From IMG/VR virus record IMGVR_UViG_2740892234_000020: a stretch of DNA of 36,453 nt; one strand, given 5' to 3'. This stretch comes from a virus. Taxonomy: Duplodnaviria > Heunggongvirae > Uroviricota > Caudoviricetes. The position numbers were made by a program. Numbering within the stretch: position 1 is the first letter of the stretch; every line of letters starts with the position of its first letter. Shown here in pieces: positions 33,001-36,000 of the stretch.

Positions 33001-36000
33001 TTCCACTGAAGAGAGGCAAAGGGTCTTTTCTCTTGTGAGCCATAGATATCAACTAACTCTTGATGTTAAGGCAGCACAAAGTTCTATTAATCATGTAATA
33101 ATGGGGAATGCTTCTTTTGGCAAGAAAATAGATACTCTTTGTGATAGTATGAGCCGGGATGTAAAAAATCGTACGGCAGATTGCATAGCAAACTCGCTTG
33201 CAGACAAGTTTTACCAGAAACATATCGAGCCGGATATTGATATTGTAAAACTACGAAATGAGATCCCAGATTATTTGAGGTGTACTATACAGGCATAAGT
33301 CTCTGGGAGACGACTACGTCAGTATCATTGGTTTTGCTCTGGTAAAAAGAGACGCGGAAAAATGCACAACAGGCGCCATACGTCATGCATGGATTCAGAT
33401 TGCTCATAATTTACCAGTACAGCTATAAATCATAAAGAAAACAGCGGTACGTCGTATGAAAGAACTTACCGCTGTTGGCTGGTGAATTTTTCGATAGTGC
33501 GAGTATTGAATGATTTCCAGCCGTTACCGATTTTACTCGTTAATTAGCGAACAAACCACTCGTCAGCAGACTCCCAGGTATCTTTCAGAGTTTCCTGAAC
33601 AAAAGTTTTAGCTGAATCTTTATCGGCAGTGCGCGTAACAGAAAGGCCATCGTTGCTGGTGGTTTTTACGATCACCTCTACATCGTCATAACGCTTACTG
33701 ATGCGCCGAGTTAATTCTTCCTTTAACGCATCCACAGCACCGTTTGGCATTTTAGTCATTTTCTCTTTGGCTATGCAGATTTCAATACGCATAAAAATCC
33801 CTCTACACTGTGTTTGTATACAGTGTTATTTTTGTCTGTATAAATAAACAGTGTCAAGAGGTCTTGTTTCTGCTCTTTTGGAGTTCTTCAAAACGATTAT
33901 GTAAAGATTTCGGATACAGTTCGGTATATACCTGCCATAGCACGTTTAATGAACGATGCCCTGTAACTTGAGCGACTTCCTCAATACTAAAACCAGCCTC
34001 AAATAAGCGACTTGCCCCTTCTCTACGCAAATCATGATATCGCAGATCTTTAATACCTAATTTGCTTCTTACCCTCTGAAATCCTGCGGTAACAGAAGTG
34101 CTGTTATATGGAAAAATGAATTCTGATTTTTTTGGTTGTCGCTGGACGATATCCCAGGCTTCCCCAAGCAAGGCAACTTTCATATGGTTACCTTCCTTTT
34201 TACGTGGATCTTTCCTATCTCTTACTAGTATAGATTTTTGTTCTTGGTCGAGATCTTCCCATCGTAACCGGCATACTTCTCCGATTCGCATACAGGACCA
34301 CACAGAAAATTTGAGGATATCAACGAACGGAATTTTTGAGCATTTATGAGTAGATCGTTGTTGAAGGCCTTCAATGAGCATGTCCAGTTCATCAGATGCT
34401 GGTCTACGATTACGACGGTTTGATTTACCAATCAAACCGAGTTTAAGTAGATATGGACGAGCGCTTTTCGCCGGGTTTGATGTGTAATTGATTCCGTATA
34501 CAGGTTTTGCCGCATCCAGAACACTGCCAAGATAACTAACATCGTGGCTGACTGTTGCTGGGCCTGCACCAGCGTTGTTTCTTAGCCTGCAATGTTCAAT
34601 TACGTCATTTTCTGTCAGTTCAGATAGTTTGATCGCGGATATGTCACTATCCATAAGCAGTTCCAGCACATATCTTTTAGTTCGGCCTGCTTTACCTCCG
34701 GCATTTGGGTCATTTAAATATTTGTGTAGTAAGTCACGGACTGTAAGTCCATCAACAGCATTTGATGATGGAATGCCATATAGATCTAATTCCATCACTT
34801 TCTGTGCGCCCCATGTTTTGGCATGAGCATGTTTAGGGAATGTTTTGCTTTCTCTGTAAGTGATAACACCTTTTTCTTTGATAATCACATTACAGCGATA
34901 GCGTGGTGTGCCATCGGATTTTAGTCGTTTCTCTATGTTATAGTACGCCATTACACGACCTCGTTATTTCGGGTTCCCATAAAACGTGGGAACCTGTGCG
35001 GGAACCTAACGCGAGAAAAATAGCCTGAAATGTTCAAAAATGCACGATAATCCTGAAACACAGAAAACTAATCAAACCAGCGTGATGCCTGAAAAAACTG
35101 GCGCTTACTGGAGTTCTCGGTTTAGCATTGCTCCTATGCTCGACTGGACGGACAGACATTGCCGCTATTTCTTGCGTCTGCTTTCCCGCAATACGTTGCT
35201 TTATACCGAAATGGTGACCACAGGGGCGATTATTCACGGTAAAGGTGATTATCTGGCGTACAGTGAAGAAGAACATCCGGTAGCGTTGCAACTGGGCGGT
35301 AGCGATCCGGCGGCGCTGGCGCAGTGTGCAAAGCTGGCAGAAGCGCGCGGATATGATGAGATCAACCTGAATGTCGGCTGCCCGTCTGACCGGGTGCAGA
35401 ACGGCATGTTTGGTGCGTGTCTGATGGGTAATGCGCAGCTGGTTGCCGACTGCGTGAAAGCGATGCGCGATGTGGTGTCGATTCCGGTGACGGTGAAAAC
35501 GCGTATTGGCATCGACGACCAGGACAGCTATGAATTTCTCTGCGATTTCATCAATACCGTTTCCGGCAAAGGCGAGTGTGAGATGTTCATCATCCACGCA
35601 CGTAAAGCCTGGCTTTCGGGGTTAAGCCCGAAAGAAAACCGTGAAATCCCGCCGCTCGATTATCCGCGTGTGTATCAACTGAAGCGTGACTTTCCGCATC
35701 TGACAATGTCGATTAACGGTGGTATCAAGTCGCTGGAAGAGGCCAAAGCACACCTGCAACATATGGATGGCGTGATGGTCGGGCGCGAGGCGTATCAGAA
35801 TCCGGGTATTCTGGCGGCGGTAGACCGGGAGATCTTTGGTTCCTCGGATACCGATGCCGATCCGGTGGCGGTAGTGCGCGCCATGTATCCGTACATTGAG
35901 CGTGAACTCAGCCAGGGGACGTATCTCGGCCATATTACCCGGCATATGCTGGGTTTGTTCCAGGGTATTCCTGGCGCGCGGCAGTGGCGGCGTTATTTAA

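Follow-up and report, generated by a model that had tools for sequence, protein, structure and literature searches.

We have analysed a stretch of viral DNA of 36,453 nucleotides (IMG/VR record IMGVR_UViG_2740892234_000020, Caudoviricetes; the whole stretch is referred to as the window) with respect to a 61-bp spacer (33793..33853) that lies between a tyrosine integrase gene (int) and a homolog of the SOS gene dinI, both encoded on the minus strand. The spacer carries two LexA boxes, referred to as A (distal) and B (proximal) with respect to dinI. The features of the dinI promoter region and of the gene itself are as follows.

33857..33852, minus strand: -35 hexamer TTGACA of the dinI promoter, an exact consensus that directly abuts box A
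33836-33851: distal box A, CTGT-N8-ACAG, reading CTGTATAAATAAACAG on the plus strand and CTGTTTATTTATACAG on the dinI strand (20-mer 33834-33853)
33828..33833, minus strand: predicted -10 hexamer AAAAAT from a promoter scan, at 18-nt spacing to TTGACA (10/12 match)
33808-33823: proximal box B, CTGT-N8-ACAG, reading CTGTGTTTGTATACAG on the plus strand and CTGTATACAAACACAG on the dinI strand (20-mer 33806-33825)
33798..33804, minus strand: Shine-Dalgarno sequence AGAGGGA, read from the sequence, 5 nt before the dinI ATG
33544..33792, minus strand: dinI-like gene, 82 aa (PF06183, E-value 1e-19; phrog_189, E-value 7e-31)

Read on the dinI strand, the region has the order TTGACA-CTGTTTATTTATACAG-AC-AAAAAT-AACA-CTGTATACAAACACAG-TGT-AGAGGGA-TTTTT-ATG, and the int stop codon TGA (33856..33854) is contained in the -35 hexamer. 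The first-pass annotation of this DNA had reported two exact CTGT-N8-ACAG sites, 28 bp apart from start to start, in the spacer between int and dinI, and its coordinates and anatomy are correct. It had also described a near-consensus TTGACA at the int stop codon; the hexamer does lie on the dinI strand and does contain the TGA, but it is an exact consensus and not merely a near one.

The promoter predicted from the sequence is bracketed closely by the two boxes, which lie on either side of the -10 hexamer, with box A abutting the -35. With the transcription start predicted near 33821, box A would fill the spacer between -35 and -10, from about -30 to -15, and box B would span about -2 to +14, its end being 15 nt before the dinI ATG. 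The pair TTGACA/AAAAAT is the sole strong promoter-like site that the promoter scan gives on the dinI strand. An overlapping hexamer at 17 nt has been chosen for the -10 by the annotators of the phage VT1-Sakai, which encodes a closely related dinI.

The window contains five matches to the pattern CTGT-N8-ACAG where shuffles lead one to expect 0.62, and none of 100 shuffles reached this count. For a graded comparison a LexA weight matrix of 20 nt was built from 41 distinct single boxes situated upstream of the dinI homologs of other genera; its consensus, TACTGTATATATATACAGTA, is the textbook LexA box. Since the matrix has been trained on dinI boxes only, its absolute scores are not comparable with published heterology index (HI) values. 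Box A (18.7 bits) and box B (14.6 bits) are the top two sites of the 36-kb window, the next best score being 9.8 bits; the maximum score per shuffle has a mean of 6.7 bits over 200 shuffles, with a highest value of 19.9. Counted by hand, each of the two boxes agrees with TACTGTATATATATACAGTA at 15 of 20 positions. The sequence thus supports the view that the two boxes are LexA operators of good quality and that they sit on a predicted promoter of the sigma-70 type.

The remaining three CTGT-N8-ACAG matches in the window have been rejected as SOS boxes. They score 8.5 bits or less, and two of them are situated within an open reading frame (ORF) of 2806 aa and one is intergenic. The intergenic match (30385-30400, CTGTGATAACAAACAG, 8.5 bits) is found near hok/gef genes, downstream of a giant ORF with an LPD38 domain and of a ydeI-like gene, a position that is not operator-like.

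The conservation of the boxes has been examined in 65 cassettes, which come from viral contigs and from genomes, for a module that consists of the -35, box A, AAAAAT, box B and the Shine-Dalgarno sequence, is 65 or 66 nt long and occurs in 23 distinct forms. Among the 19 distinct haplotypes of 65 nt, none of the 16 half-site columns is variable, against 17 of the 49 other columns (Fisher one-sided p = 0.0035). The pairwise diversity is 0.017 in the box half-sites and 0.130 in the rest of the module; in dinI it is 0.104 at third codon positions and 0.009 at first and second positions. All four half-sites are under purifying selection, being kept while the neighbouring bases drift, as is expected of operators. 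The only half-site change seen is CTGG, which occurs in the class of VT1-Sakai and mirrors the CCAG half-site of the proven dinI box of Escherichia coli K-12. The central N8 of box A varies without compensation (TTATTTAT, TTATCCAT, TTATTTGT and others), and half-sites that are fixed around such a freely varying centre are the signature of a protein operator rather than of an RNA or DNA stem.

This pattern bears directly on another explanation of the palindromes, in which they are nucleic-acid structures that serve as terminator or attenuator for int transcripts, or for antisense transcription entering on the plus strand from the neighbouring effector genes. On the plus strand, box B does form a hairpin of 9 bp (-10.6 kcal/mol) with UAUUUUUGU behind it, and it is flagged as terminator-like. 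The conserved letters are, however, exactly the LexA half-sites CTGT/ACAG; neither hairpin has a U-run at the right distance on the int/dinI strand, on which ground a terminator role of the palindromes has been rejected; and the U-run on the plus strand is simply the complement of the -10. We regard this explanation as very improbable. The plus-strand segment 33805-33835, in which TATTTTTGT comes after the box B palindrome, looks like a weak intrinsic terminator that would act on antisense transcription. This look-alike is probably a by-product of the operator together with the complement of the -10.

The gene behind this predicted promoter is a genuine dinI homolog. Its product matches the structure of E. 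coli DinI (1GHH) over the full length (residues 1-81, E-value 8e-13) and shares 47% identity with the K-12 protein, with the acidic C-terminal helix motif TWESAD-WF conserved. By its sequence, the phage protein is a full-length member of the DinI family of RecA-filament-binding proteins.

The first-pass annotation had treated the arrangement as a local curiosity of this prophage. It is instead carried by 1847 of the 5426 complete E. coli genomes, about a third, at a total of 2491 places and with up to 5 copies per genome, and it is partly annotated already in VT1-Sakai. In the 65 cassettes the module always starts with TTGA[CT]A, which stands behind 14 distinct upstream sequences of 25 nt. Grouped by eye, these represent at least five unrelated contexts, of which the 3' end of an integrase gene is just one. 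The homology with more than 100 records of Shiga toxin (Stx) phages stops at query position 458, which is window position 33857 and the first base of the -35. At the 3' side the homology ends right after the terminator hairpin or, in the Stx phages, after a ykgJ-like gene. Having its own promoter and terminator, different phage backgrounds and sharp boundaries, the dinI unit is, as judged from these predicted elements, a self-contained phage moron comprising promoter, gene and terminator. In the present window the mobile cassette joins the integrase gene within a few bases of the int stop codon, because the cassette's -35 hexamer includes the TGA of int.

The mobility of the cassette is also of relevance to the idea that the repressor acting on the boxes is not host LexA but a LexA-like or CI-like protein encoded by a phage. 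The closest complete prophage does encode LexA-family proteins. On the other hand, the cassette moves among phages integrated at several sites, which are presumably of different immunity types; the sites fit a host LexA consensus derived from the chromosomal dinI genes of many genera; and no similar site is found elsewhere in the window. The probability of a phage repressor acting here is considered next to negligible.

The best explanation of these features, and one that we consider probable, is an SOS-repressed dinI moron with a double LexA operator that works by occlusion of the promoter at two sites. In the uninduced lysogen, dimers of host LexA would occupy both boxes. LexA on box A would fill the spacer between -35 and -10 and abut the -35, and LexA on box B would cover the transcription start, so that two dimers bracketing the -10 would block RNA polymerase at a promoter with a perfect consensus -35. 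Upon DNA damage, activated RecA would stimulate the self-cleavage of LexA, both sites would become empty, dinI would be transcribed and DinI would then bind to RecA filaments. As two sites have to be vacated, the basal repression should be tighter, and the response steeper and somewhat later, than at the single-box chromosomal dinI. The repression would be exerted by two independent sites, and the consensus -35 may be the reason for the pair. We infer the transcription start, the occupancy by LexA, the kinetics and the benefit of DinI to the phage.

Good boxes on the predicted promoter together with selection on the half-sites lead one to expect SOS induction, as shown for the dinI homologs of the Gifsy prophages of Salmonella. 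The induction of dinI by the SOS response, claimed in the first-pass annotation, is in agreement with the quality of the boxes, their placement on the promoter, the selection on the half-sites and the Gifsy analogy. The further claim that dinI is induced simultaneously with the prophage holds only approximately, as LexA-controlled genes normally respond before the cleavage of CI-type repressors.

A comparison with other dinI genes provides the background to the use of two boxes. Among 80 dinI homologs of different species of Enterobacterales, 67 have exactly one CTG-N10-CAG box. Its distance from the ATG is 31-41 nt in nearly all of these, and it overlaps the -10 in those whose upstream sequence was read. 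In eight homologs no box is found; six of these have no ATG start, their 5' ends being probably misplaced. Two boxes are seen in five homologs, three of which are phage-type dinI genes of E. coli/Shigella with boxes at -59/-60 and -31. In the other two the second box is GC-rich or distant and is judged to be a chance match. In this sample the double operator is therefore seen only with the phage-type dinI of E. coli/Shigella.

Several observations weigh against the double operator or limit what it may achieve. The -10 hexamer AAAAAT is weak (4/6), and the promoter scan gave fewer sites than it did in shuffles, so that the scan by itself is no evidence for the promoter. The spacing of the boxes, 28 bp in the 19 haplotypes, is 29 bp in the VT1-Sakai class, and a spacing of either 28 or 29 bp does not indicate a fixed helical phase or cooperative binding of LexA; the fixed short spacing of cooperative double operators of the lexA/colicin type is not found here. 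Non-polar deletions of the dinI homologs in Gifsy-1 and in Gifsy-3 did not significantly affect induction (PMC3121763). The distal box of the VT1-Sakai class, CTGG...ACAG, scores 9.0 bits only and may be a weak site there. Finally, no terminator is present between int and dinI on the int/dinI strand, so that some LexA-independent transcription of dinI from the int promoter is possible.

The degeneration of the distal box in the VT1-Sakai class also speaks for an arrangement in which a single box works as the operator, the other being weak or vestigial and of no regulatory consequence; box B is then the likelier worker, as the annotation of VT1-Sakai marks it. One box is enough at nearly all other dinI promoters, and the second box listed for the chromosomal dinI of Salmonella is very weak (HI 17.6; PMC8072944). 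Against this, the half-sites of both boxes are invariant in the 19 haplotypes while the columns around them vary about as much as synonymous positions do, the distal box outscores the proximal one in the window, and CTGG/CCAG half-sites are tolerated in real operators such as that of K-12 dinI (CTGTATAAATAACCAG). A single working operator is regarded as unlikely.

The lack of a terminator between int and dinI is also to be considered along with the suggestion in the first-pass annotation that LexA bound at the spacer could affect readthrough into int. The polarity of this suggestion is reversed. The int gene (34951 to 33854) is upstream of dinI (33792 to 33544) on the same strand, and as the dinI promoter fires away from int, transcripts could read through only from int into dinI. 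A roadblock formed by LexA would lie after the int stop codon and hence leave the Int protein unchanged. Transcription entering from int could possibly supply a LexA-independent trickle of dinI mRNA or be stopped by a LexA roadblock, with the Int protein unaffected either way.

A LexA-controlled antisense promoter directed into int has been considered as well, as box A on the plus strand resembles the K-12 dinI box, in which TATAAA is by our reading the -10. It has been rejected because its best -35 partner is poor and the hexamer, which is TATGGA in the commonest haplotypes, is not conserved.

The nearest described relative of the cassette is that of the Stx1 phage VT1-Sakai (AP000400), whose dinI (H0001) shares 88.6% DNA identity and 96% protein identity with the present one. 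It has the same order of TTGACA, distal box, AAAAAT, proximal box, dinI, structured 3' untranslated region (3'UTR) and ykgJ-like gene. In the annotation of AP000400 the proximal box is labelled as 'LexA protein, putative SOS box', whereas the distal box is unmarked and falls inside a 'promoter' feature. VT1-Sakai differs in its CTGG...ACAG distal box, in the spacing of 29 instead of 28 bp and in an intact ykgJ-like gene, and its cassette adjoins the yehV attachment site where the present one adjoins the integrase stop codon. The phage mEp460 (JQ182728) has the same layout of elements, and its depositors have annotated a promoter at the homologous place, as in AP000400.

Among experimentally studied systems the closest are the dinI-antirepressor-irsA operons of the Gifsy prophages (Lemire et al. 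2011, PMC3121763), in which a LexA box and a sigma-70 promoter likewise immediately precede a prophage dinI. The dinI homologs of Gifsy-1, -2 and -3 are induced by mitomycin C and nalidixate in a LexA-dependent manner, LexA cleavage being required; the LexA box region is needed for the induction, which is 4.6- to 23-fold with nalidixic acid (PMC3121763, PMC8072944). The Gifsy genes have one box, 19 nt from the ATG and preceded by a terminator (PMC8072944, PMC3121763), whereas two boxes and no upstream terminator are present here. In Gifsy a small antirepressor gene following dinI triggers induction (PMC3121763). A similar antirepressor has been considered for the present cassette and rejected, as no ORF is present: dinI is followed by a 3'UTR and a terminator, and the next gene is a truncated ykgJ-like remnant.

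Other phage dinI genes have been described with single boxes. The phages phiKO2, 186 (tum), Fels-2 and the Serratia phage OS31 carry a dinI-like gene with a LexA box, transcribed against the direction of the tail-fibre genes at the late region's end, for which one box is reported against two in the present cassette (PMC7556043). Phage 186 has its DinI part in fusion with the Tum antirepressor (PMC3121763; phrog_189 profile).

The chromosomal dinI of K-12 and other Enterobacterales encodes a protein of the same family and is likewise controlled by LexA, and the commonest chromosomal dinI box has the very sequence that box A shows on the plus strand, CTGTATAAATAAACAG. In K-12, by our own reading of the sequence, a single box about 37 nt before the ATG contains the -10 (TTGTCA-17-TATAAA). 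In the phage cassette, in contrast, the -10 has a box on each side and the -35 is a consensus.

Multiple LexA sites on a promoter are classically linked to tight repression and to late or steep induction, and colicin genes have two overlapping LexA boxes. The SOS promoters of lexA, with two boxes, and of recN, with three, resemble the present one in having several LexA sites per promoter. In a Salmonella compilation the lexA boxes are situated 6 and 27 nt, and those of recN 8, 26 and 48 nt, before the ATG (PMC8072944). The boxes of lexA and recN are thus about 18-22 bp apart, whereas those of the phage dinI are separated by 28-29 bp that are not fixed, and cooperative binding is not implied.

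The region downstream of dinI is also conserved, and contains the following features.

33477..33522, minus strand: stem-loop 1 of the dinI 3'UTR (GGCUGG...CCAGCC), predicted from folding and conservation
33430..33476, minus strand: intrinsic terminator of the dinI cassette, a hairpin (33440-33476) followed by UUUUCUUUAU
33285..33407, minus strand: ykgJ-like gene remnant, named 'YkgJ family cysteine cluster protein, incomplete' by PGAP

The 3'UTR extends over about 110 nt (33430-33543, minus strand) and folds with a z-score of -4.0 when taken as a whole. Over roughly its first 72 nt it hardly varies among 41 haplotypes, with a pi of 0.054 against 0.104 at third codon positions. No covariation supporting stem-loop 1 is found among the 41 haplotypes. 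The stems of the terminator vary among haplotypes, and a hairpin of its own is possible in every variant inspected. There is no ORF in any frame between the dinI stop codon and the terminator, and an Rfam search of 33200-35100 gave nothing at threshold. The ykgJ-like gene is intact in VT1-Sakai (H0002), where it is annotated as co-transcribed with dinI. The remnant in the window keeps only the CxxxxxCC N-terminus and ends where the region of the effector genes starts.

[quoted passage not shown] In both cases a LexA-controlled dinI transcript has a 3' region that ends in a strong terminator (PMC10907235). The pairing region of DinR is specific to Klebsiella (PMC10907235), and the likeness to the phage 3'UTR is one of layout and not of sequence comparison. 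By this analogy the dinI 3'UTR may be a DinR-like RNA.

A more far-reaching proposal would treat the cassette as a tuned module. The double operator would keep dinI off until LexA is deeply depleted; DinI from up to five copies per genome of Shiga toxin-producing E. coli would damp the co-protease activity of RecA and so set the induction thresholds of co-resident prophages with CI-type repressors, including Stx prophages; and the 3'UTR might release an SOS-induced RNA like DinR. We hold this proposal as a whole to be distinctly unlikely.

The control of phage dinI by LexA is known biology, established for Gifsy and reported for phiKO2, and that of the present cassette has so far only been predicted, in the annotation of VT1-Sakai. 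Against the records and papers searched, what appear to be new are the distal box in the spacer between -35 and -10, which makes a double operator, and the conserved, well-folding 3'UTR of dinI. Nothing specific was found in the literature on tandem or paired LexA boxes at a phage dinI, or on an sRNA from a phage dinI in enterohaemorrhagic E. coli, and for both an earlier description elsewhere is possible. As a discovery the cassette carries little weight, being an ordinary and very common phage cassette of E. coli that is partly annotated already. The analysis provides a cleaner description of a cassette very common in E. coli and Shiga toxin-producing E. coli (STEC), with two selected operators in place of the single annotated one, a conserved 3'UTR and a 5' boundary defined by the -35. 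Should the dosage of phage DinI affect how Stx prophages are induced by way of RecA, the timing of this would be set by the double operator. Such a link would bear on the release of toxin triggered by antibiotics; the published Gifsy deletions mentioned above showed no effect.

The window itself is composite. Four runs of 10 N (11610-11619, 11951-11960, 12360-12369 and 31172-31181) indicate that it is a scaffold in which contigs have been joined. Collinearity with a lambdoid prophage situated at dusA in strain 2013C-3264, namely with its right end, is limited to 31182-36453 (99.98%), and the complete prophage of NZ_CP027544.1 has for this reason been rejected as a guide to the whole window. 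The pieces 1-11609 and 12370-31171 match structural regions of 933W/Stx-type phages in other STEC genomes, and the short pieces within 11620-12673 match tail-fibre sequence. The larger left pieces need not adjoin the piece with dinI. The dusA prophage of the reference genome encodes a CI-like repressor of the LexA family; no prophage repressor is found within the contiguous piece carrying dinI (31182-36453).

The other genes of this piece include the following.

33854..34951, minus strand: tyrosine integrase, 365 aa (PF00589), upstream of dinI and divergent from dusA
35040-36077: dusA, 88 bp from the integrase gene and divergent from it
31876-32526, minus strand: effector of the NleG family with a U-box (PF06416, E-value 2e-46)
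32708-33298, plus strand: protein of the IpaB/EvcA family, named 'bfpT-regulated chaperone' by PGAP

The dusA gene is a recognised site of prophage integration. The type III effector cargo is situated between the end of the tail-fibre region and the dinI cassette.

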